From Pecten maximus (lineage: Eukaryota), in NCBI RefSeq assembly GCF_902652985.1, contig NC_047018.1, positions 30,132,001 to 30,196,000 of the forward strand: 64,000 nt of DNA. Reading direction: 5' to 3'. Made by a program: the position numbers and the translations under genes. Position 1 is the stretch's first letter. Each line of letters begins with the position of its first letter. Of the stretch, positions 10,903 to 60,782 are shown in pieces. A model generated the notes under the pieces. That model was not told the DNA's origin. It did not search any database and was given only the letters and a program-made list of their open reading frames with translations.

Positions 10903-12419
10903 AAACGCAATAATTTTTTTTTTTTTTACATATAACATTTGGCACCAATGGGCTTCCGTAGCTAAACGAAAATTCGCTGTTTTTCATCTTTTAAGATACA
11001 CACTAGCTAGGGAAGGTACAAATCCTATGACCGAATCCAACAGGAAATGACAATACCAACAATCATTACAATACTGATGACGTCATATGTCCCTACAGGG
11101 TTAGCGTTCAAGTGGAAAAAGTCTTCAATGTTTTGTATCTCTGACATAATAGGACTAAGACCACAATTAAGTACTTCCGGGTTCAGGCCCCACGAATGAA
11201 GTCCCCTCAAAAATGTATGTATTTCAGGAAAACAAATCAATTGCCTCTTTGAACTTGATTTCTGTTGATGAATTTAATGTGGATTTATAGTAGAGATGTC
11301 AATCTAGGTTTTGTGATGTAAAATAATAATATTGATCATTTATTATGTGCTCCAGGACACTGTGTGATGAGTCCTGATTTGACCTCTACCCCTGACCCGG
11401 ATGTATATAATCCAAGTTGGTGACACATTTTGACAGCTATCTCCAGAAAATGCCCAACATGCTGGGTTGAAACTTTTATATTTTGCTTCTCAGATGTTGG
11501 TCTTGGCCAGGTGAGATGGAAAGTTGCATATGAGATTTTGGGAATTTATTATGAATTTTAATGTTACAATGAAACATATAGCGAAGCTAATTGTGGTCTC
11601 AGTCCATTGCACAGTGATAAATGCTATATGTGAGAGTTAGCTCCCTTCATGTGTATCACTTCCTTCTTTATCTGTTGAGGGATGCAGACATTAAATATGA
11701 GGGTAATTATAGAGAATATATCGTGCTAAGCTAATAGACAGTGATTTAATGACTATTTGAACCTAATCGGTGAAGGTCTTCCTTTGTGTCAACTTCTACA
11801 ATCCATGTGTAAAGTATAGCGTATAACAGTTAACATTAGTTAATGCGTCAATTGATAGAAAATATTGGCATAATTCATTTTATGTTCTCAGATTTTGCCG
11901 GCCACAAGACACAGCAACAATTAATGTAAATAAGACGTGCGTAAATAGCTTGTGCATAACTGCATATTCAAATTGATGTTTGAATTTTTAATTGAAAAGG
12001 GAAATTGAGTAAAATAGTTTCGATTCCTAACTTTGATTTATTCAAATTTAATACCAAAGATAATCTAAATCATATCAATTAGATACATGGTTATTGGGTC
12101 GGTTCTAACAGTGGCATTCTTGAACTCAAAACATTGTTTTCAAATTGAGATTATTGTTTAAGGATGTTGGATGTATTGTGACAGATATGCCTGTACAAAG
12201 ACAGATATGTGTCAATGGTGCATTAAAACATGGATTTAGTACAAGGTACACCTTCATTGATGCAAGAGACATAAAACAAGTAATCTCGATGGGGAGTTGG
12301 GAGAATACAAAAGAGAATATAGATGAGGGGTTCGTCAACCCTAACATGTGATTTGATATTTGGATACTGCATTCACCAAACCAATCATGTAACCATTTTG
12401 ATAACTTTAGACACTAGTA

Positions 12420-13349: not shown

Positions 13350-13745
13350 AAAGTAATATATTAAGTGATATTTTCGTTTTATTATATTTTACCATTGAAA
13401 TATAGAAAATTATTCATTCTATAAAAGTTATATTTTTCACCAATGACAAATATCACTTTCTCTGGTCTGATTATTGTTCATTAGTGAAAAATATCACTTT
13501 TTTTCTGATTTGACCAATCAGAATAATGCCTGCAAACGACAATGGTATGTTTTGCTAGAAAAATCTAATAAACAGAATATCTAACAATATCTTTAGTAAT
13601 ACCAAATATATTTCACTCGTGTGGCTAATATTTTGATATTTTTCACGAGTGCTCTCACGCGTGAAGAGTGAAAAGTACCAAAATGTTAGACCCACTCGTG
13701 TAATATATATTTGGTATAACTGAAGACCCTGTTAGATATCCTCTA
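13350..13745. mobile_element. Non-autonomous element ending in a ~170-bp imperfect palindrome (Crypton-like terminus)
   Basis: Fold-back 13572-13744: ATATCTAACA/TGTTAGATAT and TACCAAATATAT/ATATATTTGGTA arms; left boundary approximate. Confidence 0.55.
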
Positions 13746-28391: not shown

Positions 28392-31047
28392 TTTTTCTTT
28401 GCGACGGATGTAAATAACTGCGTCACGTGACAAGCCATGTGACCTTTTCGGCTTTCTCCGTAAGCAACCGAGCGTGATATTGTTTACAATGTAAACAATG
28501 TTCCGACCCCGAAAATATGTACAAAAACACCCAACTTGACGGTGTAGCCGCTTGTATCGCTTAATTATGGGTATATCTTATTATTCAAAGGCCGAATTCT
28601 TCAATTCCTGAGGTTGATATCTAAGGTAATAGTCCCTTTAACACTGGCCCTGCTTGGCGGGTCTACCTGCGAATCCAAGTGTTCCCAGAATTTACATCCA
28701 TATCCACTACCGAACTAACCGTTAGTAAAAAGAAACCCAAATTATATATGGCGCGGACTCTTATTTTGTCCTAATCTATATTTTCATTATTCTTACACTT
28801 GTAATTTTCTTTCACTGATGAAATTTCGATAATTACTTAATTTCTGAAATCCCATCCCTAAGTCTACCTAGTGTCCTATCTTTATCTATGGGACAACATT
28901 TCCTCGTTCTCAACGTGTGTTTGTGTATGAATTACGATTGTATTGTACATGTATACATTTATGAGATTTAAAAAAAAAACACAATTTTACTAATTAAAAT
29001 CGATCAGATTGCTGTGCGCCGTTTTAGGACCATATCATGTGTAAATGGCTGTGTCTACATCCCTTAGTTTCGATTTCTTTGTGTTCACGAGAAATACAGA
29101 CCTACTTCCTCGTACCAAATACATACATGTGTATTTATATTGATATTAATTACTCTTAGTCCTTATTTGGCGTAAATTAATTTTCGTTTCATTATATTTT
29201 TTTGAAGTATAACTTAATATTCGTACTATTCAGATTAATCATAATTGTCATTTAGGGACAAACTGATGTCGCCAATAGATTCAACCACATTACACAGCGG
29301 AAATAGCAAGTATACTGAGGTTAGTACAGGGTATTTTTAGACTCAAGTCTAAAAATAAAAAGCTCTGTATAGCCAAAAATATCATAACTTAATTTATATT
29401 TGGACTGATATTAAAGATCTGATATAAAATATACACATAACTTCCTTATATATGATACAGCGTTTTTATAACACACGTGCTGATTACCTAGCATGTATAA
29501 TGTATGTATATGTTAATTAGCTTGGCGATGACGGACAGGTCTACGATCGATTTATTATGTAACCAATAACTTCACGGAACTTTTGAACTGGGTCCTAGTT
29601 TCCGGTATGATGACACAACACACTGTACAGTAAACACTACAATTTAACTAAAATTTGTAACCCTTTGAAAACTCTCTGCATCGTATTTCAGGAAATTCGT
29701 TTATTCTGATTTCAAGATTTCCTTTTATTTTTTTTCAGTAGCTCGATTCTGAAATAAATTAATATTTTTATTATCATTTCATAATATTCAGTTTGAAACT
29801 GTATTATATAAAATTAATGCACATGTAATTCTAATATCCAATATTCCTTCAAGAAGGAAAACACAGAATCTTAAAAAGAGACGTTTCGGCCTGGTGTTTT
29901 CTGTGTTTATCGTGGTGAGGGCAATCCATTTGAAACAGGTGTTATTTTTAACCATATGACATCAATCTTTTTCTGCCATTAAAGTACATGTATGAATTTG
30001 AATTTTACTAAAAATATGCCACTGCTACTGTGCATAATTTTATCGTGATCAATTTACTTTCAAATATAATACCGATACACGAGTCACGTGTACTCTACAG
30101 GATGTAAAACAAAACTTTACAAAGTCGTGTCTTGATTCCCCAGACATATAGCTCTAATCTTTCATTAAAACATGTTCAGTTTATGTTTATGGACAATAGA
30201 GCTTTACCTGATAAATACAATATTTCCCTTTCTATTTATGATGTGTATCTGGGTCATGACTGCAGGGGTCGTCCAGTACAATGTACGCTGATACCTTATA
30301 TTAGACTATTGATCTCAAGTAGTATCATAATTATGTATGTTAAATCATTTTAGTTTATTTATGTATCTATTTATTTTATTTATATATTTATTCATTTATG
30401 TAAATGAATGAATGAATTTATTTATTTAATAACATTTATTTATCTCTCAAATCGTTAATTCCTTCATAACTAGATTCCCAATACTGTACCATGAACTCTC
30501 ACTTTTGTACTTCTATCCCAGTAATCACGTCTATTGGCTTGGTAAGCCTGCCCATAGCAGATCTAGATACCTACCATCAGTCCCACTCTCGATGTAATGG
30601 TCGGGTATCTATACTAAAATCTAGATTTATCACCGACACGACTGACACCATCGATATCCCCCACGAACACACGGGTTATCACCTATGAAATATTACATAA
30701 ACAAATAAAGACCATAAGCCCAAACTAAATAGCTCCTGTTGAGATAGGTGGTCATAAATCCAGGTTTGATACAAAATGTTCACTGTTATTTCTTCATTGG
30801 AACTCATAGTATTGTCATGGACGCCATGAACTTAAAATTCACACTAGGAAACTTCCGGTTGATCGATTCCGAATTCACGACCTTGACATGTTATTTCCGG
30901 TTCATCGCTGTGTACGGCTTATTTTTGTTTTTTGTTTTTTTGTTTACATGAGATTGATATAATCGAAAAATTGTTTTGAAACAATAGATGTCGATAAAAT
31001 GCTGTAAACTGTCATGCATGTGTTTGTCTCGCTGTTCAAGTACATTT

Positions 31048-31254
31048 TTTATGACATCTCTGTCTTGTACACGAGCTAGGTGACCACAGCTAGTTTGCTG
31101 TTAAGAAACACTAGAAATTGATAATGAAGACATAATATGTGTTGAAAAGGTCATTTATTAATGACAAATCAATTTCAGATATAAAGATATACCCCCAAGT
31201 TATAAATTAGAGAAATTATGACTATAACAGCAAAGATGGGGTAAAAAATAGGCA
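31048..31254 (-). repeat. Split direct repeat B2 (207 bp)
   Basis: Matches 31808-32014 (offset 760); carries a minus-strand AATAAA at ~31154-31159. Confidence 0.95.
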
Positions 31255-31428: not shown

Positions 31429-31812
31429 AAATCAAAAGTGTTAAAAAACTTCCATCAGTGGAGATAAACTTTTACACTTGATTTTCCCAATGGAGGTGAC
31501 GCTACTGAGGGTCAATCTCCTCTGTGATAGGTCCGGTGGCTGGGCTACGTGGCTGCTGATTGGCTGACCAATCACACGCTTCTATCCCTTAAGCCAAAAT
31601 GACCAGAGGTCAGTCAAGTCCTGGGAATTTTCCATCACGTGGCCCAGACATGGACCTCCTTCTTGACCCCTCAATGTTAGCCCATTTACATAAAAACCAG
31701 AACAATGGGAGATGCGAGTGGTGCCAATGCCCCTCTCAACATATAATAAACAAACAATTACAGACTGACATAAATGTATTTATTTATACAGATATAAATA
31801 AATGTTATTTAT
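31429..31812 (-). repeat. Split direct repeat A2 (384 bp)
   Basis: Matches 39020-39403 (offset 7591). Confidence 0.95.
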
Positions 31813-32014
31813 GACATCTCTGTCTTGTACACGAGCTAGGTGACCACAGCTAGTTTGCTGTTAAGAAACACTAGAAATTGATAATGAAGACATAATATGT
31901 GTTGAAAAGGTCATTTATTAATGACAAATCAATTTCAGATATAAAGATATACCCCCAAGTTATAAATTAGAGAAATTATGACTATAACAGCAAAGATGGG
32001 GTAAAAAATAGGCA
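31808..32014 (-). repeat. Split direct repeat B1 (207 bp)
   Basis: Matches 31048-31254; overlaps A2 by TTTAT (31808-31812). Confidence 0.95.
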
Positions 32015-32421
32015 CTGATGACCTAGTCCAGATATTGTATAGAATGAATATATCTAGGGCAAGGTCATCGCCCCATCCAAGGTCACCAAGCTCGAGTAAG
32101 TGAGATAGTTGATATTTTCCTGATACCGATGATAGGAAATAGGTTATCAAATGACCAGAAGAATTAATGGATATATTTTTGATAAGCTCAAATGATTTGA
32201 ACCCCATGATATAATATGACCGAATGTACACAGGCAGAAACAGTTCGTGCACTGTGACATGATCACATGAGTTACATAAAACAACATGATACAGGTCGCT
32301 CTGTCAGATAACATAAAGCTTTCGTAAATAACACAAACTGATGTGGACTGAACTGACCTTCCTCAAACTAATATAAGTAACCGCGGAGCTTGCCAAGTTA
32401 ATAATAAATTTAAACAACAAT

Positions 32422-33108
32422 GTTATAACTAGAGGAAGCAGGCAGTACTGACCTTCCAATTATAACAAAATATTAAAATAATGTATACAAGATATTGAAA
32501 ATTTCAATAACAAGAACCGTTACAACTCTAGGAAGCAGGCAGTACTGACCTTCCAAAAACCAAGTGGCAAATAATAGACATAAAAACTGCAAATATAAAT
32601 TGACCAACAATGTTACAACTTAAGGAAGCAGGCAGTACTGACCTTCCCATCATAACAAAGTAACAATATATACACATAATAATGAAAACACAAAATTCTC
32701 AAAACAATGTTACAACTTGAGAATAACACAGTACCAATATATACACATAATAATGAAAACATAAAATTCTCAAAACAATGTTACAACTAGAGGAAGCAGG
32801 CAGTACTGACCTTCCCACCATAACAAAGTATCAATATATACACATAATAATGAAACATAAAATTCTCAAAACAATGTTACAACTAGAGGAAGCAGGCAGT
32901 TCTGACCTTCCCATCATAACAGAGTATCAATATATACACCTAATAATGAAAACATAAAATTCTCAAAAAAAAAAATGTTACAACTAGAGGAAGCAGGCAG
33001 TTCTGACCTTCCCATCATAACAAAGTATCAATATATACACATAATAATGAAAACAGAATTCTCAAAAAAAATGTTACAACTTGAGGAAGCAGGCAGTACT
33101 GACCTTCC
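32422..33108 (-). repeat. Array of conserved 36-bp hairpin cores with ~57-65-bp AT-rich spacers in the Ngaro 3' region
   Basis: GTTACAACTAGAGGAAGCAGGCAGTACTGACCTTCC-like cores at 32422, 32519, 32612, 32780, 32876, 32977, 33073; partial core at 32709. Confidence 0.92.
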
Positions 33109-33198: not shown

Positions 33199-34161
33199 TT
33201 ACTTGAATATACTGATACGAATATACGAGCGAACTGCATCAGACTTCCAACGACCATACTTCTGCAAAATAGATTGCGGAACACCTAGCTGTGTAGCCGT
33301 AGTGGCAGCTCCGATTCTGAAGGAATGACCTTTATATACTTTTGTGTCAAGTTTTAAAAATTTCAAAACTGATTGAAGAGATTTGCAAAAGAAGGAATAT
33401 GTAACAGGGGCACCATCAGCAAATTGAAATAATGGACCTGTGCTATGTTTGGTTGATTCAAGGTATTTGCGTAATGCTGATACTGGGCAGTAAGTCTTGT
33501 CTGCTTTAACAGGGATTTCCAGCGTTACAGGGTGATTGTCACAATGTTTGAAATTTGTGATTTTGACAGTCATACCTTTAAGTAGGGAAGTATGGTTGTC
33601 ATACAAAAACGTTATATCACTTGTCTGTAAAATAGTAGACACCGAGTTATTATGGTTCAGGGTAATTTCGCCAATGCGCAAAAATGCGTGAAAAGCCAAA
33701 AGAAACATAGCTCTGCAAAGACAAGCCTTAAAGTGCGGGAAAATTGTTTTACCAGTAGCATTGATTATATTTTCCAAAATATCTAAAGTGATTGGAAGTC
33801 GACAATCTGAAGAGCACCTACTGTTTTGGACACCTTTTAGCAATTTTTTTATATAAAATAGGTCAGTGGGATCTTCCATGTTTTCCATCTTGTGTATGAA
33901 ACTGATAGCTGACATGTATGAATAAATAGTGGCCGAACTTAGATTCTTTGCGAACAGGTGTACAATAAATTTTGCCAACACATTCTGTGGAATAGGAAAA
34001 ACAACCGGTGTTGAAAAGTTTGACCTATGAAAATCCATGAATGAAGATAACACGCGCTTATAACCAGATCTGGTGGATGGTGCTAGGGAGGCTGCCAAAA
34101 GCTGAGATGTTAAAGAGTCGTAAGAAGAGGAGGTATCGAGACCGGGTGCGGATCGAGCCAC
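33199..34161 (-). CDS. Tyrosine recombinase (YR) of the Ngaro element
   Basis: 320 aa; FLRIGE (Arg), GHSFRIGAAT (HxxR) and GRWKSDAVRSY (Trp, Tyr) catalytic motifs. Confidence 0.95.
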   Translation of the reverse strand: MARSAPGLDTSSSYDSLTSQLLAASLAPSTRSGYKRVLSSFMDFHRSNFSTPVVFPIPQNVLAKFIVHLFAKNLSSATIYSYMSAISFIHKMENMEDPTDLFYIKKLLKGVQNSRCSSDCRLPITLDILENIINATGKTIFPHFKACLCRAMFLLAFHAFLRIGEITLNHNNSVSTILQTSDITFLYDNHTSLLKGMTVKITNFKHCDNHPVTLEIPVKADKTYCPVSALRKYLESTKHSTGPLFQFADGAPVTYSFFCKSLQSVLKFLKLDTKVYKGHSFRIGAATTATQLGVPQSILQKYGRWKSDAVRSYIRISIFK

Positions 34162-35939
34162 GGTGCGATTTTGTGCGCCTCCTGAAATTGGAAACGAGAC
34201 AATTTGTCAGCCACCACATTAGTGTAACCCGGGATATGTTTAGCACGAAAATGTATGTTAAACTTTAATGTGGATAACACCAGTCGCCGGACCAGTTTCA
34301 TCAAAATGGCATCCTTAGATGATAATTTGTTGATGATATCTACTACTGCTTGGTTATCACAAAGAAACAGAATCCTATGATTTGCTAACTTTTGACCAAA
34401 CATCTCCAAAGCAATCACAATTGGAAAGAGTTCTTTCACTGTTATGTGTGTAACCCTCAATTCATCTGTCCATTGCCCTGTAAACCAACTGGCACCAAGA
34501 ACAGCCGCATAACCACCATGTACCCCAGCTGCATCAGAATACATTTTGATTGTATCTGACGATATCCATTTGTCAAATAAGAAAAAAGCCTTCCCATTGA
34601 AATATTCCAAAAACAAAGACCAAGCCTGTAGGTCAGCTCGAGCCTCCTTATTAAGCCTAATAAAATGATGAGCGAGTTTAACGCCCTTAGTTAGGTCAAT
34701 AAGACGTCTTAAAAAGGCTCGACCGGGGACGATAATCACACAGCAGAAATTCAGGAAACCAATAATTTGTTGTAAATGCTTTAGTTGTATACGCCTTTTG
34801 TTTTTAAAGGAGTCTATCAGACTATGGGCCTTAAGGAGTTTTTCCTCTGGGAGACTAGCTGTCATAGATTTAGAATCTAACTGTATGCCATAAATGACTA
34901 TTACTGTAGAAGGCCAGTGGGTTTTATCCTGTTTTATCGGAATACCCAGGAATTCTGTGGTTTTCAGAAATATCTCTAAGTCAGACCTGCATTTTGAGGA
35001 AGAGGGAGGACCTGCAAAGAAGAAGTCGTCTAACAGGTGTGACATGAAGGCTTTGTGCTTGTTAGTCATGTACCATTGGAGAGCGCAACTCAGTTTTTCA
35101 AAGAGTTGGCATGATGATGAACACCCCATGGGTAGGCACTTATCAAAATAATACTTGTTATCCCACATAAAACCCACATATTTGTATTGTGACGGATGGA
35201 TGGGAAGAAGCCTAAATGCATCCTCAATGTCAGCTTTTGCCATTAGGCAGCCTTTGCCAAACCTCTGTACTAAGGCAATAGCATGCTCAACAGTTTCATA
35301 TTGAACAGCAGAAAATTCTGTGGGAATTAAATTATTGACTGAATTACCATCTGGATATGACAGATTATGTATTAATCTAAATTTTCCCAGTTCTTTCTTA
35401 GGAATTAAACCTAAAGGAGAAATAATCATGTTATCGAAGGGTAAAGATTCATACGGACCTGCTATTCGACCTTTTAGGCGTTCCTTTTCTATTTTTTCCA
35501 AAACTCTTACAGGGTTATCGACAGCTGATTTATGATTGGTTGGGATAGTTTTTGAAGGAACGACATCCCCTGATATGCCTAAATGAAAACCTATCGAGAA
35601 ACCCTCGTATAAGAAATCTGTGAGCACTTGATCGTAGTTAAGAAGAAGACTTCTCATGCGCTTTGCGTGAATTGGGGTTGGTAGAGTTAACATTATTGTG
35701 TCTAAGCTGGGACTGGTTGATAGGCCAGTGGCAGTTCTTGGTGGCAATTTTTTTGCCGCACACACAACACTCGTGTTTGAATCTACAGGAAGATCCATGC
35801 TTACAGGTCCCTTCAAGTGCGAATCCCCAACAATAGCCATAGGGAAGTTTAGGCTTTTGCTGGAACTTCCCTCGAAAGGGCTGAGAGTTCTGGGAAAAGG
35901 GCTTGGCTTGATTGGGTTTTCCATATGGTGTTTGTACAT
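34110..35939 (-). CDS. Pol: reverse transcriptase + RNase H of the Ngaro element
   Basis: KFRLIHNLS, KADIEDAFRLLP, LPMGCSSS, HLLDDFF (RT); YSDAAG, KELFPI, LCDNQA, ADKLSR (RNase H); overlaps gag and YR; true start uncertain. Confidence 0.95.
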   Translation of the reverse strand: MYKHHMENPIKPSPFPRTLSPFEGSSSKSLNFPMAIVGDSHLKGPVSMDLPVDSNTSVVCAAKKLPPRTATGLSTSPSLDTIMLTLPTPIHAKRMRSLLLNYDQVLTDFLYEGFSIGFHLGISGDVVPSKTIPTNHKSAVDNPVRVLEKIEKERLKGRIAGPYESLPFDNMIISPLGLIPKKELGKFRLIHNLSYPDGNSVNNLIPTEFSAVQYETVEHAIALVQRFGKGCLMAKADIEDAFRLLPIHPSQYKYVGFMWDNKYYFDKCLPMGCSSSCQLFEKLSCALQWYMTNKHKAFMSHLLDDFFFAGPPSSSKCRSDLEIFLKTTEFLGIPIKQDKTHWPSTVIVIYGIQLDSKSMTASLPEEKLLKAHSLIDSFKNKRRIQLKHLQQIIGFLNFCCVIIVPGRAFLRRLIDLTKGVKLAHHFIRLNKEARADLQAWSLFLEYFNGKAFFLFDKWISSDTIKMYSDAAGVHGGYAAVLGASWFTGQWTDELRVTHITVKELFPIVIALEMFGQKLANHRILFLCDNQAVVDIINKLSSKDAILMKLVRRLVLSTLKFNIHFRAKHIPGYTNVVADKLSRFQFQEAHKIAPWLDPHPVSIPPLLTTL

Positions 35940-36858
35940 GATTTATGCGCATGGCGGCCATACGCCATAATTCGTCATGTACTATGTTCCAGTTGACTGG
36001 TTGAGTACGACGCAATTTTCTAAAATTTTCATCATAAAATTTGACAGCTTGAAATCCATAATTTTGATTTAACAATCTCATAGTGTTTCCATACTTCAAC
36101 AGATGAGATATCTTTTCTGGAAACTTTTCCGTATAAATTGACACGAAAATGTCAAAGGCCTGATTCCATTGACTGATGTTTGCAACTGATTTTGCTTTGG
36201 AACTAGCTGTCAAGCCAAGCCCATTACCCTCATAGGTCAACTTTAGTTTTGTTTGTTCAGATTCATAGGACGGAAAAACTAGCTCACCAAATTCAATAAA
36301 TTCGTTTTCCATAATTTTCGCTCTGATTTTGTCAGAGACATTGTACCCTAAAGGGAGAGATGAGGTACATGTTAAAAAAGCCTCATTTGCAGGTCTATTA
36401 GCAATGTCTTCACCTTCAAACATTCTTTGAATGGCAGGTAAACCATTAATGTCCTCCTGATTATGTGCAGTTGATTGGTGTGGGACAGCCAGCTGGTCAA
36501 TGTCACGAGCACTATGCGTTTGTTCTTCACTAGATTCATTTTGAGCCGTGGATGGCCCACTAAGTCCCTTTGCACTCAGGACCTGGTTCACAACATCAGC
36601 CACTATGGTTGCTGTTTCCTGTCGTACTTGTTGGACCACCTGACTTACAATATCTGCGATGTTGACCCCTGACAGGGGAGATTGGACAGGTCCCTGTAGC
36701 TGGTCAGCTGGTGGAACAGAGTTTTCTTCATTGTACATCGCCTCAGGAACTGGTGGTGTGGTAATTCTTGTCGCTTTGCGTGGTGTGGAGGACTTTTTGG
36801 ACTTTGATGTTGTCATCGCTACACGTTGACGCTTTTTGGGAGGTGGTTTGCCAGACAT
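35638..36858 (-). CDS. Gag-like ORF1 of the Ngaro element
   Basis: First ATG at 36858 (MSGKPPPKKRQR, NLS-like); KIRAKIMENEFIEFGEL and W..AF.IF..IY...YDENFR motifs of DIRS/Ngaro ORF1; C-terminal Cys/His cluster CWGFALEGTCKHGSSCRFKHECCVCG. Confidence 0.88.
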   Translation of the reverse strand: MSGKPPPKKRQRVAMTTSKSKKSSTPRKATRITTPPVPEAMYNEENSVPPADQLQGPVQSPLSGVNIADIVSQVVQQVRQETATIVADVVNQVLSAKGLSGPSTAQNESSEEQTHSARDIDQLAVPHQSTAHNQEDINGLPAIQRMFEGEDIANRPANEAFLTCTSSLPLGYNVSDKIRAKIMENEFIEFGELVFPSYESEQTKLKLTYEGNGLGLTASSKAKSVANISQWNQAFDIFVSIYTEKFPEKISHLLKYGNTMRLLNQNYGFQAVKFYDENFRKLRRTQPVNWNIVHDELWRMAAMRINHVQTPYGKPNQAKPFSQNSQPFRGKFQQKPKLPYGYCWGFALEGTCKHGSSCRFKHECCVCGKKIATKNCHWPINQSQLRHNNVNSTNPNSRKAHEKSSS

Positions 36859-37374
36859 CTTGACTTTAGTCTGTCCCACAGTGACTACCCTGTAAAATTT
36901 AGATTGTGACAATAACAGTGTTTGTGAATAAAAACCCAGTGCAAATGTAAATATTTGCCCTGTGCGAAGCCTAAAAGACAGCCCAAGTTATACATATATA
37001 CTATCCCGTGTTTAAATAATTGATTGATCTGTGGAATTGGCCATGATAGCCTGTTTACAGTAATGGTATTATTAAATGGATACGCACATTGATGCAAACA
37101 ATCAATATAAATTTATATGGGATTTAAAACCTAAATTGAGAAACCACTAGAAAAATTCCATAATGATCTCCATTTTTAACATTATATTGTAGTTTGATGA
37201 ACTAAATCACCTTAATAAATAATGTTACCCTGTTATATATAGCAGCACATGTATAAATCATGGCTTAAATATAATATACAGGCATATTGTAGTCCAAGTT
37301 GGAATCTCTGAAACATACTCGTACCGAATACAGACCTATATGACAAGCGCATTAATACATTATTATAATTAAAG

Positions 37375-37820
37375 CAAACAATAATGGCCAGCAAACAGAC
37401 CCATGAATATTGATTATATCCAAACAGACAATAATGGACTATGAATAGCCCCATGCATGCTGAATATATTCAAACAGACAATAATGGCCTAGGCCCATGA
37501 ATGCTAAATAAACAGAATAATAAACAAGCAAACAATAATGGCTATATTAATTGACCCATGAATGTTGAATAAAACCAAGCAAACAATAATGGCCTATCAC
37601 AGACCCATGAATGCTTATAACTATATTCAAAACAGACAATAATGGCCTAGCCCATGAATGCAGTAAGAAACATAGCAAACAATAATGGTCTATTACTATA
37701 TAAAGACCCATGAATGCTGACAACATCAATCAATATGTATTGCGTAAATTAAATAGGCTGTATCCTAACCTGGCAGAGCCAACAATTATGTTCGAACAAT
37801 AATGGTCCATATTCAGACCA
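37375..37820 (-). repeat. Array of 7-8 two-motif hairpin units upstream of gag
   Basis: Conserved CARACAATAATGG and CCCATGAATG separated by variable segments; period ~45-60 bp. Confidence 0.88.
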
Positions 37821-38218
37821 GTTTACCAAAATGCAGTACCTAATATCATGTCCCACGTACAATGTAAATCCACACAGATCTATTTCCAAGATCTATACCC
37901 AATTTCAATAATAATCTGTTAAAGTTAAATAATGACAAAAGGTATTCGTCGGAATGGTTAGAATTACAAGGCTAATATATATAGATCCTAACACTGTACT
38001 GCTATCATAAACATTAGGTATTTTGTACACAATAATAAATCGCGATTATCTCCCTTAGACCATGAAGATCGCCACATCGCAAGATCTGTGCTAATTATAC
38101 GCAGTTAATGAAGATGGAGCATAGAAAGCCAACTATAGGACAAAATTTCCACTGTTAGTGACCACTTAACTCGATTAACTTGCTACGGGACTTACAATTT
38201 ACTCATGTTGGCACTGTT

Positions 38219-38803
38219 TCACTGTAGCATTATCGTCTTCGCTTGAGAGCCTATCGCCGATCTGACGCTCCTCGCATATTTTTTCATGCCCATCGAATTT
38301 AAGTGAACGTTATCTCTCGCGTAGAGTGCCCTAGAGTCTTGCCAGAAACCTCGATGTTTCCAAAACACAATAGTGATCCCATCTACCGAAGATGCTAGCG
38401 AATTGTTGACTACAGGAAGTTTTGTGTTGTACTCGCCATTGTCGTTAAAACGAGGCAGTAACTGTCCGATTACAACTCTCCGAACCGAGGGCGCGTTCGA
38501 AACACGGTACGCCAAGTTCAGTATGGCATTTGCTAGATCAACTGGATGACAGCTAGGCTTTGATAAATCGTTGCCTCCAGCTTGTATGAACACAATATCG
38601 GGAGGATAGGACGTATATATATCCGAAGGAAGTTGTAAACACTTTGGGCCTGGGTATACAGTACCTCCACCGACACCAGTACACGAAACTTGAATCACGT
38701 TTCCGTCAAAGTTGAAATTATTAAAATCATTGTCAGGAGTAGACGCAAAACAGCCTAATCGACGTACAAAAGAATGTCCTAGCACTAAGGCAAGCAAAAC
38801 CAT
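38219..38803 (-). CDS. SGNH/GDSL-family hydrolase carried by the Ngaro element
   Basis: 194 aa; block I VLGHSF (Ser), block II GVGG, block III QAGGNDL, block V DNVH (DxxH); lies inside the A1-B2 boundaries. Confidence 0.9.
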   Translation of the reverse strand: MVLLALVLGHSFVRRLGCFASTPDNDFNNFNFDGNVIQVSCTGVGGGTVYPGPKCLQLPSDIYTSYPPDIVFIQAGGNDLSKPSCHPVDLANAILNLAYRVSNAPSVRRVVIGQLLPRFNDNGEYNTKLPVVNNSLASSVDGITIVFWKHRGFWQDSRALYARDNVHLNSMGMKKYARSVRSAIGSQAKTIMLQ

Positions 38804-39019
38804 TCTTAAAATCTATATGAGGCGGGATATTCCGATCGCCGTATATAAATACCTCCGTAGGCTAGCTAGGCCTAACAGGCATATAAAAACCGGATTGAAT
38901 TTACCTTGTAGCAGCGAGATATCCTCCTTATGTAACCACCAGGGTCTGTCTTACAGATGGACGTAAAACACAAATCGAAAAGTTCGATTTCCACTTCAAA
39001 TAAAAGAAAATCAAAAGTC

Positions 39020-39403
39020 AAATCAAAAGTGTTAAAAAACTTCCATCAGTGGAGATAAACTTTTACACTTGATTTTCCCAATGGAGGTGACGCTACTGAG
39101 GGTCAATCTCCTCTGTGATAGGTCCGGTGGCTGGGCTACGTGGCTGCTGATTGGCTGACCAATCACACGCTTCTATCCCTTAAGCCAAAATGACCAGAGG
39201 TCAGTCAAGTCCTGGGAATTTTCCATCACGTGGCCCAGACATGGACCTCCTTCTTGACCCCTCAATGTTAGCCCATTTACATAAAAACCAGAACAATGGG
39301 AGATGCGAGTGGTGCCAATGCCCCTCTCAACATATAATAAACAAACAATTACAGACTGACATAAATGTATTTATTTATACAGATATAAATAAATGTTATT
39401 TAT
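39020..39403 (-). repeat. Split direct repeat A1 (5' terminus, probable promoter)
   Basis: Matches 31429-31812; contains the dyad GATTGGCTGACCAATC with CCAAT boxes on both strands. Confidence 0.95.
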
Positions 39404-40376: not shown

Positions 40377-43300
40377 TTATAAGTCGGAGATTTTCCCCCA
40401 GTTTTTCCACTCTTTTTCAAACTTTTCCCTACAGGCTTCTCCTTTACTATATGCAATAAATTTTTGCGTCTCATGATATTGTTTAAGAGCACTTATCAGA
40501 CCATTGATGTTTAAAGACTTGTGAAAACATCGCATTTTATAAATATATTGTTTGATAACAAGGAGAATTTCATTGTCAACTTTACAGTTATTAGGATTTT
40601 GAGATAGTAGTCCAAAAATAAAAGATTGCTTATTGAAATTAAATGGGATAAAAAGAGCATCTAATAAAATTCTAAGACTTTCTAATAAGTTCTGAACTTC
40701 ACAACATTCCCACAAGATATGTATGATAGTTTCAATTTCAGAATTGCATAAAGTACAAAGAGGAGAAATTACTAGCTGTGATTTGAAAAGAAAAGAGTTT
40801 GTGGTTAAGATGTGATGATTAACTCTGTACTGAAACCACTGAAGTTTGGTATTTTTTGTAGCAATAAAGGGAATCTTGAATATCCTAGTCCAAGTTGTAT
40901 CATTCAAGTTAAAAACTTCATTCCACTTCTTTTTACCTGTAGGAACATTGTTATTTTTAATAAAAATATTATAGAAATCCTTTGAGCCTTTTCTGTGTTT
41001 CATGAATAATTCTATGTTCATTGGCAAACAAGGATATGGGATTTTTAATACAGGAATTTCTTTTGAAGACAAAAACTTTCTTACTGCTGACAAAAGGCTA
41101 TGATACTGAAGAAAATTAGTTTTTACTTGATATGTGCGAGTTACTTCTTGGAAAGTGTGAAAACATCCAGTATTATGATCTGATATCAAGTCATTTATCA
41201 TAATTATGTTTTTGTTATAGAAATTCTTAAAAAATACTGATTTCTGGCCAACAGTTATATCTTTATTAAACCATAGTGGTGTTTTTAGGATAGAATCTTT
41301 CATAATGCTATTTTTTTCGATTGATAGATTTAAATTGTACCAGGCTTTAAACACATCAGCCCAGAATATATTACTGCAACTTTTTGCACATTTCTGCACA
41401 TAATCATTGCCACAATTGGCTAGCAAATCAATGTTAATGTAACTTTTCAAAATAGCTTGCCACTTGGCTGTAGTTTGAAAAAGCCTTCTCACCCAAGATA
41501 ATTTTAATGAATCTATAAAAGCTTTTATATTTATCATTTTTAAACCACCATTTAGATAATCTTGAACAATAAATTCTCTTTTTACTTTATCTGTTTTGCT
41601 ATTCCACAAAAATTCAAAAAGAATGGAATTTAGTGTTGAAGTAAACTGTTCATTAGGACTAGGGAGTGAAATAAAGAGATGGTTAAATGTGAAATGAGGA
41701 GCGATTTAATAATATGGATTCTACCGATAGGGGTCAAAACTCTTCTTTTCCAGGTTTTAAGAAAAGACTTTAATTTAATTAGTTTTTTATCGAAATTCAG
41801 TTTTGGTATCTCATGTAGGTTGACATGAAATTCAATCCCCAATAGCGTAAATTTGTGTTTGCCCCATTGCAAATTAAGATCTGGTAGGAAAGTATCGTCA
41901 CTGAACTTTTTACTACCTATCCAAATTACCTGTGTTTTAGAAACATTAATTTTAAGACCAGAAATTTTAGCGTATAAATTAAGTTCATTAACTGATTCTT
42001 TAAGAGATATCTCTGAGCCGTTCAATGCCAAAGATGTATCATCTGCATATTGTGAGAGTAGGATCGGACTTCTATTGACTTCAATGCCTGTTATATTTTT
42101 ATTATGTCGTAATTTGATAGCTAATATTTCTGCACATAGGATAAAGATATACGGGGCTATCGGGTCACCCTGTCGGCATCCCCTTTTAACATTGAAGAAT
42201 GAAGACAAGTTTCCTCCCTGAATGATTGCGGCACTGACATTTTTGTGAAATACATTTATCCAATTTCGTATGTTTTCCCCAAAACCAAAAAATTTTAATA
42301 CTTTTTCAATAAACTCCCATGAGACTGAATCAAAGGCTTTTTGGAAATCTATCATAAGCAGCATCCCTGGAATATTATTATCCTCTGTATATTTCATTAA
42401 ATCATAAACTAACCGTGTATTTTCCCCAATATATCGTCCAGCGAGAAAACCTGTCTGATCCTTATCTATAATTTTGTCTAAAACTGTTTTTATTCTATGT
42501 GTAATTGTTCCAGATGCTATTTTATATATCACAGTGAGTAATGTAATTGGTCTCCAGTTTTTTATAAAATGCCTTGGTTTGTCTCCCTTTGGTATGCAAG
42601 TCACAATTCCACGACGTTGAGAAATAGATAATTCACCTTTTTTGTACCCTGAATTTATAGATCTTACCACAAAATTACCCAAATATTTCCAAAAACATTT
42701 AAAGAACTCAGCTGTAAAACCATCTATGCCAGGACTCTTGTTGTTTTTCATGCTTTTTAATGTTTTTCCTGCTTCTTCTAGAGTTATAGGACCTTCTAAC
42801 TTTTCAGCATCTTGTCTATTTAGTTTACAAACATTACAATCTTTTAACAAATCTTGCAAGTGAACATCTTCTATTTCATTTTCATCATTATAAAGATTTT
42901 CATAAAAACTGCGAACTTCATCTAAGATTTCATCTTGCTTTGTAATAACTTTTCCATCATCTAATTGCAATTTAGGAATTATTTTCGAGGTAAAATTTCT
43001 ATTTTCCAAATTAAAAAAGTAGTTAGTTGGTTTCTCACCCTCTTCAATCCATTTAGCTCTTGATCTTACTATACTGCCTTTAATTCTATGTTGTCTTATT
43101 TTTTCTAATTCTTTCTTTTTAGATTCTAATTGTGCAAAATTAATATCATCTTCTTCAAGTTTTTGAATAGCTGTTTTTAAATTATTCTCATTAAGATTTC
43201 GTTGTTTCTTGAGATAGGTTGAATAAGAAATTGTTTTGCCTCTGATGTGTGTCAATAAGGTTTCTAGAAAGAGACAATCATCAATAGTAAACTGAAGGTC

Positions 43301-44172
43301 TGCATCTGGTATGCTTGATATATTGAAAAGATTATATAAAGGCAGACAGTTTATTCTTTTAGATTCCAAAATACATTCCTTAACAAGTTTTAGATAGTTT
43401 TGATCATGTAGTAAACTGTTATTAAATTTCCAAATACCTTTACCTGTTTTGAATTCAGTAAGTTTAAGAGATATTGATGGGAAAGAGTGGTCTGATCTGT
43501 ATCCTGTTTCTATGTTTGATTTTACTGTATTTGAAAGTAGGTTTTCAGTCAGAAGAAAAAAGTCTAGACGGGCCTGTTTTTTGGGGTTACTTCTCCTCCA
43601 GGAGTACCTTTTTAAATTCTCGTGATGTTCCCTAAAAATATCAATAAGAGAGAAATTATCAATAATTTCCAAAACTTTGTCCCTAGCTTTAGGATTATTG
43701 ATATGCTTATAACTATTATCATAGTCTAAACTGGGGTCTAAGACTAGGTTAAAGTCGCCACAGATGATAACATATTTATTGTTAAAGTCTTCAACTGTCT
43801 CAGATATAAGATTATAAAATGCAGGGTTATCTTCATTTGGACCATACAAGTTAATGAGTGTTATGTTAAAATTTTCAATGCCAATTGCTAGTGCAATAAA
43901 ATTACCATTAGGTCCTCTTCTCTCTTTAAATATTTTAAATTCAAAATTATTTTTAAATAAAATGGCAACACCCCTCGAGTTGGATTTGTAAGAACTGAAA
44001 AAACACTGGTAACCCCACTGATTTCTAATGATACCTTCGTTTTCTTCAGTAAAGTGTGTATCTTGTAAACATATAATATTGCATTGCATTGATCGAAAGT
44101 AAGAAAAAATATCAGTTCGTTTAGTTTTTTCTCCAATGCCGCGACAATTTGCTGATATAATCGAAATGCTAT
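40377..44172 (-). CDS. L1 ORF2 (APE endonuclease-RT-CCHC), one frameshift near 41688; N-terminus probably supplied by splicing
   Basis: ISIISANCRGI, LQDTH, GDFN, RLDFF, SDH (APE); NWRPITLL, RQGDPIAP, QYADD (RT); CTLCNSEIETIIHILWEC; a 1-nt shift restores FNHLFISLPSP and joins the two listed ORFs. Confidence 0.9.
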
Positions 44173-45239
44173 CTACGGTATAAACACAAAGCTATCAAAT
44201 TAACTGTCCCCATCCCGAGAACAAAGAAAGAAAGAGAAAGAGACAGCGAGTAGATAGAAAGAAATAGACTGTATAAAGACATAAAATACATACGTGAGGT
44301 CAACGACCTAAAGACCACTGCCAACCTAACATACTACACACGTTTTCTTTCTGAAACAGCATCTACACCACCATATTGTTGTCAGACAAGAGTTATCTTA
44401 CCGGAAGTTGTATAATACATTTCCGGACTTGGTGTAATCCGGAAAAGAGATATCGTATGCATTTTATATAAAGTACCAATATTTAATGTGTTAACGTTGT
44501 AGGTAACCCTACAGCTGTCACTGATTATTTAACACCGTTGTACATTGTAACTTTGACAGGATTTTGCACAAGAACAATAAATACAACCCATACTGATTTT
44601 TTTCCCTTGAAAATTAGATAAAACATATACAATATAGACCTAGATGAATATAAACCAGAAAAATATATACATTGTAGCTACTCTTATGCCACAAACAACC
44701 AGTATAATGTATGTACATGTACGTAGTCAAACAGACTGGCAAGAAATTCGAGCATGTACTGAATAAATCTTATATCTAAAAACAGTGGATAAATAAAAGA
44801 GAAACATTGGTATTTGAAAGAAGTGTACAAAAAAAACAACAACAAAAAAACAAACAAAAAAACAGGGCAAGTATGTTCTGCCAGATGTTACTGATTATAT
44901 AATGGACAGACTCCAAAGAGATTAATGCACTTTTAGATGTATATTTCCACATATTGGAATGTGCGTAGAATTTTGAGTAAATAAAGGGGGAAAAAATCAC
45001 AGGCTACATATACAAAAAAGCTACATCTTACCTGGTGTTACAGAAATGTATGTCCCGTAATCACATGGAAAACACGCCACACACTAAGAAAAGACACACA
45101 TACACACGCGTACACATTATATTACCAATTAAATTCCAAACACTGTCAAAAGTTATCGGTATTAACCAGGAGGAATGAATTCCTGGCGGCACCGTGGTGC
45201 CAAAGTTCCATACCGATATATTATCCATTAAAATTAAGT

Positions 45240-49234: not shown

Positions 49235-50200
49235 TCATACAGGGACGTACAGGGACATACAGGGACATACAGGGACGTACAGGGACATACAGGGACATAC
49301 AGGGTCATACATGGACATATAAGGACATACAGGGACATACAGAGACGTACAGGGACGAACAGAATCATACAGAGACATACAGGGACATACAGAGACGTCA
49401 GGGACATACAGAGACATACAGGGACGTACAGGGTCATGCAGGGACATACATGGACATACAGAGACATACAGGGTCACACATGATCATACAGGGACGTACA
49501 GGGACATACAGGGACATATAGGGTCATACAGAGACATACAGAGACATACAGGGTCATACAGAGACATGCAGGGTCATAAAGGGACGTACAGGGTCATACA
49601 GGGACGTACATGGACATACAGGGTCATACAGAGACATACAGGGTCATACAGAGACATACAGGGACGTACATGGACATACAGGTCATACAGAGACATACAG
49701 GGTCATACAGGAACGTACAGGGTCATACAGGGACATACAGTGTCATACAGAGACATACAGGGTCATACAGGGACATACAGGGTAATACAGGGACAAACAG
49801 AGACATACAGGGACATACAGGGTCATACAGGAACGTACAGGGTCATACAGAGACATACACAAGGTCATACAGAGACATACAGGGTCATACAGGAACGTAC
49901 ATGGTCATACAGGGACGTACATGGTCATACAGAGACATAGAGGGTCATACAGGGACGTACAGGGTCATACAGGAACGTACATGGTCATACAGGGACGTAC
50001 ATGGTCGTACAGAGACATAGAGGGTCATACAGGGATGTACAGGGTCATACAGGAACGTACATGGTCATACAGGGACGTACAGGGTCATACAGAGACATAG
50101 AGGGTCATACAGGGACGTACAGGGTCATACAGGAACGTACAGGGTAATGCATGGGCATACAGGGTCATACAGGGTCATACAGGAACGTACAGGGTCGTAC
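49235..50200. repeat. 10-bp minisatellite, ~95 variant copies
   Basis: AGGGACATAC / AGGGTCATAC / AGAGACATAC / AGGAACGTAC variants. Confidence 0.95.
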
Positions 50201-57047: not shown

Positions 57048-60000
57048 ATCTACGACACCCCTTCGTGTAATACACTTAGCTATGACACCCCTTCGTGTAG
57101 TACACTTAGCTACGACACCCCTTCGTGTAGAACACTTAGCTACGACACCCCTTCGTGTAGTACACTTAACTACGACTCCCCTTCGTGCAGTACACTTAGC
57201 TACGATACCCCTTCGTGTAGAACACTTAGCTACGACACCCCTTCGTGTAGTACACTTAGCTATATGACTCCCCTTCGTGTAGTACACTTAGCTACGACTC
57301 CCCTTCGTGTAGTACACTTAGCTACGACACCCCTTCGTGTAGAACACTTAGCTACGACACCCCTTCGTGTGGTACACTTAGCTACGACACCCCTTCGTTG
57401 AATACACTTAGCTACGACACCCCTTCGTGTAATACACTTAGCTACGTCTCCCCTCCGTGTAGTAAACTTAGCTACGACACCCCTTCGTGTAGTACACTTA
57501 GCTATATGACTCCCCTTCGTGTAGTACACTTAGCTATATGACTCCCCTTCGTGTAGTACACTTAGCTATATGACTCCCCTTCGTGTAGTACACTTAGCTA
57601 TATGACTCCCCTTCGTGTAGCACACTTAGCTACGACACCCCTTCGTGTAGCACAATTAGCTACGACACCCCTTCGTGTAATACACTTAGCTACGACTCCC
57701 CTTCGTGTAGTACACCTAGCTACGACACCCCTTCGTGTAGTACACTTAGCTATATGACTCCCCTTCGTGTAGTACACTTAGCTATATGACTCCCCTTCGT
57801 GTAGCACACTTAGCTACGACACCCCTTCGTGTAGTACACTTAGCTATATGACTCCCCTTCGTGTAGCACAATTAGCTACGACACCCCTTCGTGTAATACA
57901 CTTAGCTACGACTCCCCTTCGTGTAGCACACCTAGCTACGACACCCCTTCGTGTAGTACACTTAGCTACGACTCCCCTTCGTGTAGTACACCTAGCTACG
58001 ACTCCCCTTCGTGTAGCACACCTAGCTACGACACCTCTACGTGTAGTACACCTAGCTACGACTCCCCTTCGTGTAGTACACTTAGCTACGACACCCCTTC
58101 GTGTAGCACACTTAGCTATGACACCCCTTCGTGTAGTACACTTAGCTACGATACCCCTTCGTGTAGTACACTTAGCTACGACACCCCTTCGTGTAGTACA
58201 CTTAGCTACGACACCCCTTCGTGTAGTACACTTAGCTACGACACCCCTTCGTGTAGTACACTTAGCTACGACACCCCTTCGTGTAGTACACTTAGCTACG
58301 ACATCCCTTTCGTGTAGTACACTTAGCTACGACACCCCATCGTGTAGTACACTTAGCTACGACACCCCTTCGTGTAGTACACTTAGCTACGACACCCCTT
58401 CGTGTAGTACACTTAGCTACGACACCCCTTCGTGTAGAACACTTAGCTACGACACCCCTTCGTGTAGAACACTTAGCTACGACACCCCTTCGTGTAGTAC
58501 ACTTAGCTACGACACCCCTTCGTGTAGTACACTTAGCTACGACACCCCTTTGTGTGGTACACTTAGCTACGACACCCCTTCGTGTAGTACACTTAGCTAC
58601 GACACCCCTTCGTGTAGAACACTTAGCTACGACACCCCTTCGTGTAGTACACTTAGCTACGACACCCCTTCGTGTAGTACACTTAGCTACAACACCCCTT
58701 TGTGTGGTACACTTAGCTACGACACCCCTTCGTGTAGAACACTTAGCTACGACTCCCCTTCGTGTAGCACACCTAGCTACGACACCCCTTCGTGTAGTAC
58801 ACTTAGCTACGACTCCCCTTCGTGTAGTACACCTAGCTACGACTCCCCTTCGTGTAGCACACCTAGCTACGACACCTCTACGTGTAGTACACCTAGCTAC
58901 GACTCCCCTTCGTGTAGTACACTTAGCTACGACACCCCTTCGTGTAGCACACTTAGCTATGACACCCCTTCGTGTAGTACACTTAGCTACGACACCCCTT
59001 CGTGTAGTACACTTAGCTACGACACCCCTTCGTGTAGTACACTTAGCTACGACACCCCTTCGTGTAGTACACTAAGCTACGACACCCCTTCGTGTAGTAC
59101 ACTTAGCTACGACACCCCTTCGTGTAGTACACTTAGCTACGACATCCCTTTCGTGTAGTACACTTAGCTACGACACCCCATCGTGTAGTACACTTAGCTA
59201 CGACACCCCTTCGTGTAGTACACTTAGCTACGACACCCCTTCGTGTAGTACACTTAGCTACGACACCCCTTCGTGTAGTACACTTAGCTACGACACCCCT
59301 TCGTGTAGAACACTTAGCTACGACACCCCTTCGTGTAGTACACTTAGCTACGACACCCCTTCGTGTAGTACACTTAGCTACGACACCCCTTCGTGTAGTA
59401 CACTTAGCTACGACACCCCTTTGTGTGGTACACTTAGCTACGACACCCCTTCGTGTAGTACACTTAGCTACGACACCCCTTCGTGTAGAACACTTAGCTA
59501 CGACACCCCTTCGTGTAGTACACTTAGCTACGACACCCCTTCGTGTAGTACACTTAGCTACAACACCCCTTTGTGTGGTACACTTAGCTACGACACCCCT
59601 TCGTGTAGAACACTTAGCTACGACACCCCTTCGTTGAATACACTTAGCTACGACACCCCTTCGTGTAATACACTTAGCTACGTCTCCCCTCCGTGTAGTA
59701 CACTTAGCTACGACACCCCTTCGTGTAGAACACTTAGCTACGACTCCCCTTCGTGTAATACACTTAGCTACGACACCCCATCGTGTAGTACACTTAGCTA
59801 CGACACCCCTTCGTGCAGTACACTTAGCTATATGACTCCCCTTCGTGTAGTACACTTAGCTACGACTCCCCTTCGTGTAGAACACTTAGCTACGACACCC
59901 CTTCGTGTAGTACACTTAGCTACGACACCCCTTCGTGTAGAACACTTAGCTACGACACCCCTTCGTGTAGAACACTTAGCTACGACTTCCCTTCGTGTAG

Positions 60001-60782
60001 AACACTTAGCTACGACACCCCTTCGTGTGGTACACTTAGCTACGACTTCCCTTCGTGTAGTACACTTGGCTACGACTCCCCTTCGTGTAGAACACTTAGC
60101 TACGACACCCCTTCGTGTAGAACACTTAGCTACGACTTCCCTTCGTGTAGAACACTTAGCTACGACACCCCTTCGTGTGGTACACTTAGCTACGACTTCC
60201 CTTCGTGTAGTACACTTGGCTACGACTCCCCTTCGTGTAGAACACTTAGCTACGACACCCCTTCGTGTAGAACACTTAGCTACGATACCCCTTCGTGTAG
60301 TACACTTAGCTACGACACCCCTTCGTGTAGTACACTTAGCTACGACTCCCCTTCGTGTAGTACACTTAGCTACGACTCCCCTTCATGTAGTACACTTAGC
60401 TACGACACCCCTTCGTGTAGTACACTTAGCTACGACTTTACTTCGTGTAGTACACTTAGCTACGACACCCCTTCGTGTAGTACACTTAGCTACGACTCCC
60501 CTTCGTGCAGTACACTTAGCTACGACTTCCATTCGTGTAGTACACTTAGCTACGACACCCCTTCGTGTAGTACACTTAGCTACGACTCCCCTTCGTGTAG
60601 TACACTTAGCTACGACTTCCATTCGTGTAGTACACTTAGCTACGACTCCCCTTCGTGTAGTACACTTAACTACGACTCCCCTTCGTGCAGTACACTTAGC
60701 TACGATACCCCTTCGTGTAGTACACTTAGCTACGACACCCCTTCGTGTAGTACACTTAGCTACGACACCCCTTCGTGTAGAT
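57048..60782. repeat. 30-bp satellite array, ~124 copies
   Basis: TACGACACCCCTTCGTGTAGTACACTTAGC units; the long ORFs here are artefacts. Confidence 0.98.

Follow-up and report, generated by a model that had tools for sequence, protein, structure and literature searches.

Predicted bulged RNA hairpins repeated in the 3' tail of a Ngaro retrotransposon of Pecten maximus and found in other mobile elements

Downstream of a recombinase gene in Pecten maximus a short repeat returns seven times at a period of about 97 bp, which raises the question of what carries such an array, which part of it is conserved and what might read it. The window analysed here is a stretch of 64,000 nt (NC_047018.1 of assembly GCF_902652985.1, positions 30,132,001-30,196,000, forward strand). 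An earlier note on this DNA had proposed that selection acts on both the repeated core and the spacing, as in a functional RNA or DNA array, with protein-binding sites or processed small RNAs as candidate functions.

The array and the element that carries it

The seven 36-nt cores and one partial unit described in that note are present (Table 1), with 92-100% identity among the cores, 96-100% among their 24-nt hairpin parts and core-to-core spacings of 97, 93, 168, 96, 101 and 96. Its account of the spacers also holds: the identity between spacers 1 and 2, and of either to the remaining spacers, is 62-73%, close to the chance level given by shuffled AT-rich spacers (mean 60%, maximum 70% of 200), and spacers 3-6 are mutually 83-92% identical and are therefore recent duplicates. 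The degenerate eighth site is likewise found in both other genomic copies of the element. As the 918 Mb of the genome contain the exact 24-mer 13 times, at three loci that are all copies of the window's element, and the reversed 24-mer 0 times, the array is not a product of chance. Nor is it a CRISPR array, as had been judged from the start, since unique spacers of fixed length are lacking: four spacers are duplicates, the period is not kept in relatives and no cas gene was found among 7 scanned ORFs, of which 4 belong to the element and 3 are neighbours.

Table 1. Features of the element in the window (positions counted from the first letter of the window)
Feature	Position	Strand	Remarks
Array of seven bulged RNA hairpins (predicted)	32422..33108	-	inside 36-nt family-specific cores
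Starts of 36-nt cores	32422, 32519, 32612, 32780, 32876, 32977, 33073		last ends 33108
Starts of 24-nt hairpin units	32434, 32531, 32624, 32792, 32888, 32989, 33085	-	each +23
Partial unit	32709-32720	-	only GTTACAAC part retained
Degenerate eighth site	about 32339-32362	-	5' arm kept, 3' arm lost
Tyrosine recombinase ORF	33199..34101	-	PF00589 E 3.9e-5, below curated cut-off
Reverse transcriptase / RNase H ORF	34110..35645	-	PF00078 E 2e-9
Gag-like ORF, candidate reader	35638..36855	-	basic N-terminus, tandem CCCH + CCHC fingers; zf-CCCH E 0.0013, below cut-off
Stand-alone SGNH hydrolase ORF, second candidate reader	38219..38803	-	5' of gag
Intron	36889..38903	-	donors near 38904 and 38195, acceptor near 36888
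Second motif array, inside intron	about 37378-37807	-	eight motifs, GGCCATTATTGT in element sense
Split direct repeat A1	39020..39403	-	384 nt, 100% identical to A2
Split direct repeat B1	31805..32014	-	210 nt, 99.5% to B2
Split direct repeat A2	31429..31812	-	
Split direct repeat B2	31045..31254	-	
AT-rich palindrome adjoining B1/A2 junction	31778-31803		within A2
Larger, separate predicted RNA structure at start of B1	31988..32085	-	

The array lies within the transcribed 3' tail of a Ngaro (split-direct-repeat, tyrosine-recombinase) retrotransposon. The element has A1-B1-A2-B2 repeats, gag, RT/RNase H and tyrosine recombinase ORFs and a GDSL match, with no methylase family at E<=0.01 in the scan of its ORFs, and this set of repeats and ORFs agrees with the definition of Ngaro in the sections consulted of PMC9210276 and PMC3783388; the RT, the recombinase and the minus-strand orientation given in the earlier note are all confirmed. 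The R, H, R and Y residues of the recombinase are invariant in the alignment, the first hairpin begins about 90 nt past its stop codon, and the SGNH protein retains its catalytic S, G, N and DxxH. The palindrome at the repeat junction is likely the recombinase site. The separate structure at the start of B1 has a G-rich/C-rich outer stem, a long inner hairpin and a 3' internal loop, and with a similar fold in at least four sister families it is a candidate replication element. In the deletion derivatives of the element B1-A2-B2 is always kept and the tail with it, for which reason they are no test of the hairpins; the reading of the family's deleted copy as a spliced product was rejected. The Ngaro element is adjoined by a LINE-type endonuclease-RT element in two frames on the minus strand (40377-44191), and the window also holds long tandem arrays at 1394-2987, 49236-50194 and 57050-60787, with units of 33, 10 and 30 bp.

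Contigs cover the array in four sequencing runs (three studies), of which two are recorded as RNA and two guessed to be RNA, although such contigs tell neither the strand of the tail, nor its ends, nor its levels. Within a control stretch only small repeats are covered in the same four runs (7-10 of 30 bins) and unique DNA is uncovered; two short repeats elsewhere in the window (11150-11610 and 13390-13745) have high RNA-contig depth in all four. Contigs of two of the runs show the joints 38904->36888 and 38195->36888, with GT-AG ends on the minus strand, and as the array is 3' of both it would be on every splice form. A packaging signal of the retroviral type sits only on unspliced genomic RNA and was therefore rejected as an explanation. 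For a genome-only or DNA-level signal the second motif array, inside the intron, is a better candidate, and 15 of 17 other families scanned have a repeated motif of their own in the same intron region. The SGNH stop codon lies only about 24 nt ahead of the second splice donor (38195-38219), a distance that would presumably spare an SGNH-gag message from junction-triggered decay.

The conserved unit and its predicted fold

Relatives were drawn from 90 stretches around recombinase matches (132 of 931 candidates scored; two loci in twice), so that 91 tails were scanned, the window included. From them ten motif patterns were defined, which label 47 of the 91, all matches in the tails being on the element's sense strand, and four unlabelled tails viewed by eye likewise hold repeated motifs; at least eight hairpin classes coexist in the one genome. 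The array proposed in the earlier note does have counterparts in sister families, as the hairpin of the window (class A) is carried by families with 58% and 41% recombinase identity, within other stems, and its period in these two nearest sister families is about 48 and 44 bp. Since stems and periods differ in this way, the 36-nt core and the 97-bp period are family-specific, and on the comparison of tails what is conserved is not the 36-bp core but a bulged hairpin of 24 nt. Thus the proposed selection on the core stands for the hairpin and falls for the GUUGUAAC part, which is absent from sister families, whilst that on the spacing is contradicted: two other copies of the window's element have spacings of 168, 168, 94, 97 and 97, 127, the range is 44-168 bp in relatives, and other hairpin classes are irregularly spaced at 60-350 bp.

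The lowest-energy fold of the unit has a 5-bp stem, a GU bulge on the 5' side, a CAG/CUG upper stem and a 6-nt loop (6-7 nt overall), and we infer this to be the fold of the hairpins. Alternative folds of the 24-mer were rejected (-3.5 and -2.4 against -5.7 kcal/mol), as they misfit the loops found across hosts. Against the fold, a single hairpin has only -5.7 kcal/mol, five sense windows give mixed z-scores of 0.39, -0.18, -1.70, 1.18 and -3.04, and when the whole array is folded only two of the seven local outer stems exceed a pairing probability of 0.3.

It is the outer pairs that argue for this fold. Among 26 distinct flank pairs of class A, pairs 3-5 can form in 23, 21 and 21, against a shuffled expectation of 19.2, 12.2 and 14.2 (p<=0.001, an optimistic value because the rows counted are related), and pairs 2-5 of class B in 18, 18, 18 and 17 of 18; covariation is also found in class D, weakly in class F and not significantly in class C (8 flank pairs), and it fades past pair 5-6. 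Five lineages have built five stems around one inner sequence (GGAAG/CUUCC, GUGAG/CUCAC, AAGAG/CUCUU, GGGAG/CUCCC and UGGAG/CUCCR). The same fold with other loops is found in 10 of 80 Ngaro-like metagenome tails, the best 80 of 543 loci, with 26 sense and 0 antisense matches against a shuffled mean of 1.25 and a single match in 70 kb of recombinase coding DNA, for a bulged-CAG pattern fixed only after the data had been viewed; one locus of these best 80 carries class B twice. A scan of viral contigs gave at least 120 stretches, and the 80 listed are single matches that were taken as chance. With outer stems that covary and a fold that recurs in the tails of other hosts, the earlier suggestion of a function as a structured element is supported.

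The same evidence bears on several other readings. Neutral tandem duplication would account for the four recently duplicated units and their similar spacers, and is hardly credible given an inner motif that is invariant beside spacers at chance level and stem covariation between lineages whose recombinases are 25-58% identical. Small-RNA precursors with a phase of about 97 nt, which the earlier note had put forward, would fit the longer predicted stems into which several window copies extend; with the loss of covariation beyond the first pairs, stems that are mostly of 5 bp and no fixed period, they appear very improbable. Hairpins that act without a partner or from RNA to RNA, by blocking nucleases, by dimerisation or through condensate contacts between repeats, are improbable too: the repeats can cross-pair in the whole-array fold and the loop region of the window contains the palindrome AGUACU, whereas the loops of sister families (GAUU and GGUU variants) are not self-complementary, and an Rfam scan gave no family at the gathering score, with four weak matches at E 0.56-2.7. 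At 24 nt and such a low stability the unit is small for a ribozyme or an exonuclease block.

Sites that work as DNA, also part of the earlier proposal, could be an enhancer array, for which AGGTCA, which we take to be a nuclear-receptor half-site, comes to mind, or recombinase or anti-silencing sites like VANC targets, where family-specific short motifs are multiplied by tandem duplication, as in VANDAL (PMC5735166, in the sections consulted). Covarying stems, an excess of G-U over A-C of 34 to 7 at pairs 1-5 of five classes and an orientation in the sense strand only would be unexpected for double-stranded DNA sites, and the repeat junction has an unrelated palindrome of its own, so we regard such sites as quite improbable.

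Lineages, candidate readers and sharing between mobile elements

The hairpin class follows the trees of RT, recombinase, Gag and SGNH (FastTree; 63 of 94 rows for RT, 74 of 97 for recombinase and 56 of 81 for Gag, near-duplicates and short rows being left out), with each subclade of one large Ngaro clade having its own class, and as the class tracks all four proteins alike the trees cannot name a reader. Array-bearing elements across hosts form one recombinase clade (support 97), within which the bulged-CAG fold is found in the window's subclade (support 95), a second subclade and a single locus besides; outside the clade are class G and a small number of other repeats. In three recombinase copies of the window's clade (L048, L049 and L050) a 22-bp satellite interrupts the sequence at nearly the same point.

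In both clades Gag combines a basic N-terminus with tandem CCCH-CCHC fingers, and no class-specific residues were seen by eye in the fingers. The SGNH gene is 5' of gag in 24 of 25 array-clade loci having both A repeats, whereas in the array-less clade it is placed behind the recombinase, where the window's clade has its arrays, or is not detected. The 5' and 3' SGNH proteins form separate groups with support 100 (L086, L097, L106, L108, L113 and others), and the last helix has 2-5 K/R in 17 of 17 of the 5' proteins against 0-3 in 8 of 8 of the 3' ones; this basic helix of the 5' SGNH is a single clade-level difference and only a lead. PMC3905857 offers a precedent, itself speculative in the section consulted, in which arginine-rich peptides bind structured RNA elements. 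An RNA-binding SGNH protein like Oskar was rejected as a model: the SGNH fold is common to the window protein, the esterase of the ZfL2-1 LINE ORF1p (4C1B) and Oskar OSK, yet OSK has lost the catalytic triad and binds RNA (PMC5785220 and PMC10792757, as far as consulted), whilst the 5' SGNH proteins, that of the window included, keep their catalytic residues, have 4C1B as the best PDB sequence match (E 9e-13) and do not have OSK among the matches listed.

The strict motifs of classes A-D hardly occur outside mobile elements. Genome-wide, the class A pattern gives 98 matches and its control 2; 97 of the 98 are in retrotransposon tails, with 70 in tails of the window's clade, 6 in a distant recombinase family and 21 in a gypsy family, and the remaining match is stemless. 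The distant family has about 25% identity to the window recombinase, and its Gag gave no tblastn match to the window Gag; class A is absent from the first 840 nt in six relatives of this family (51-57%) and in two at 36%. L087/L089 have one A-like match, at +743, which was left out of the captures for its poor stem. The tails of four distant-family relatives (L205, L215, L219 and L221) repeat, after the stop codon, GGACA/GGACU words that were not counted against chance and that presumably resemble the m6A consensus.

The gypsy family encodes Gag, protease, RNase H and integrase, and in nine of nine copies with an internal tail the hairpin precedes the polypurine tract by some hundreds of nucleotides. 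Its variants have loop-letter changes or G-U pairs, and between two subfamilies 20 nt are unchanged amid diverged flanks, one pair having changed in a compensatory way (C-G/A-U) and another from U-G to U-A or the reverse. It is not a general gypsy feature, being found in 0 of 40 related gypsy tails, where one loose LTR match is stemless. Three copies of one related gypsy family have a weak look-alike with a GA bulge, and another gypsy relative (L442, about 2090-2350 in element sense) has four hairpins with UCAG loops and a compensatory change, in the LTR behind a TATA box.

Classes B, D and C have 67, 50 and 60 strict matches against 0, 0 and 2 for the control. Inspection of 18 loci without a nearby scored recombinase match, two class C loci being left out, gave 14 Ngaro elements or tail fragments, 2 pogo elements, 1 KDZ-like transposon and 1 satellite. 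Class C is tripled behind the pogo transposase in 2 of 4 copies, in data compatible with transfer in either direction, and the motif is absent from the sole KDZ relative (80%), so that pogo and KDZ are at present weak cases of sharing suggested by motif matches.

Such sharing brings in the possibility that the same hairpins are read by RNA-binding proteins of the host, which would stabilise, export, translate or localise the transcript. No Ngaro protein would then be needed for class A in the gypsy and distant recombinase families or for class C behind pogo, and the retention in gypsy is explained at least as simply. Against this are the near absence of strict motifs outside mobile elements and the many classes, each invariant within its lineage, with loops that differ between lineages inside one host; the geometry also departs from that of Egl-type signals. 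Whilst the retention of the hairpin in unrelated elements keeps a host reader in play as the main rival reading, we think it rather unlikely.

A proposed function and its known parallels

As the fold is kept in relatives and the motif occurs in two unrelated retrotransposon families, the hairpins are likely protein docking sites, and we give about even chances to the reading that they are RNA docking sites for a protein probably encoded by the element itself. A reader descended from the element is favoured because there are many classes, none of them varying inside its lineage or present in non-mobile DNA, and eight or more classes in one genome fit readers that co-diverge with each lineage. 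The protein, more probably Gag, through its basic N-terminal motif or its CCCH-CCHC fingers, than the SGNH protein, would read the bulge and loop of each hairpin; the Gag binding put forward in the earlier note is thus plausible. With hairpins on all splice forms, the likely effect would be a Tat/Rev-like control of what becomes of the RNA (stability, export, translation or RNP nucleation) rather than a selection of the unspliced genome only; copy number would add avidity with spacing left free, and an element that had acquired a hairpin by capture would profit in trans.

A fuller version, which is speculative and which we consider unlikely, is that one large Ngaro clade is Tat/Rev-like throughout, every lineage pairing a hairpin code with an RNA-binding factor of its own (Gag, or the 5' SGNH and its basic last helix), and that unrelated elements (gypsy, the distant recombinase family, perhaps pogo and KDZ) captured single hairpins to hijack the factor. 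If true, transposon orders would be trading a portable RNA code, and the protein-hairpin pairs would amount to a natural, orthogonal library. With any reader encoded by the elements, at least eight short orthogonal RNA-protein pairs would exist in one genome. Retention in unrelated elements points either to hitchhiking between transposon orders or to an unrecognised host pathway exploited by several transposons.

The closest parallels in shape are small bulged hairpins of RNA viruses and retroviruses on which proteins dock, such as HIV TAR, the MS2 operator, the RRE and the CTE. Like these, the array hairpins appear to have a stem, a short 5' bulge, a short upper stem and a loop, with a variable lower stem and a fixed bulge and loop, and a conserved bulged stem-loop with covariation is what the alignments suggest for the array. 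The array differs in being multi-copy, in the 3' tail and in lineage-specific classes, and the likeness drawn here is one of shape.

For the question of how elements of the DIRS order recognise and prime their own RNA, the hairpins offer a defined, testable cis-element for which the natural class swaps are built-in controls. In the parts of PMC7192593 consulted there is no known primer for the order, and the sole hairpin mentioned is that at the 3' end of DIRS-1; a text search of the Ngaro papers PMC9210276 and PMC3783388 gave no mention of 'hairpin'. No paper on such arrays was found in a search that covered literature outside subscription journals, Repbase and supplements and that probably missed '3 UTR' spelled with a prime sign. 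The window element resembles the Ngaro superfamily as described in the sections consulted of these three papers, with A1-ORFs-B1-A2-B2, gag, RT/RNase H, recombinase, an SGNH hydrolase and no methylase seen, and departs from it in the SGNH ORF, which here precedes gag and is removed by splicing; in PMC9210276 this ORF follows the recombinase, an order also found in the array-less clade of the same genome.

A small stem-loop common to unrelated RNAs, a retrotransposon included, is also known from the Egl-BicD signals of host mRNAs and of the Drosophila I factor, which uses a gurken-like localisation signal (PMC13186709, as far as consulted). In those signals the upper and the lower helix each need at least 6 bp and the bulges are on the 3' side, whereas the array hairpins are predicted to have 5 bp, a 5' bulge and 3 bp around a fixed inner sequence, and with helix length and bulge side both different an Egl-type localisation signal was rejected. 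The VANC/VANDAL system, in the account consulted (PMC5735166), shares with the array family-specific target motifs multiplied by tandem repeats in non-coding regions, and differs in that its targets are DNA in plant DNA transposons, whereas the evidence from the array points to RNA structure.
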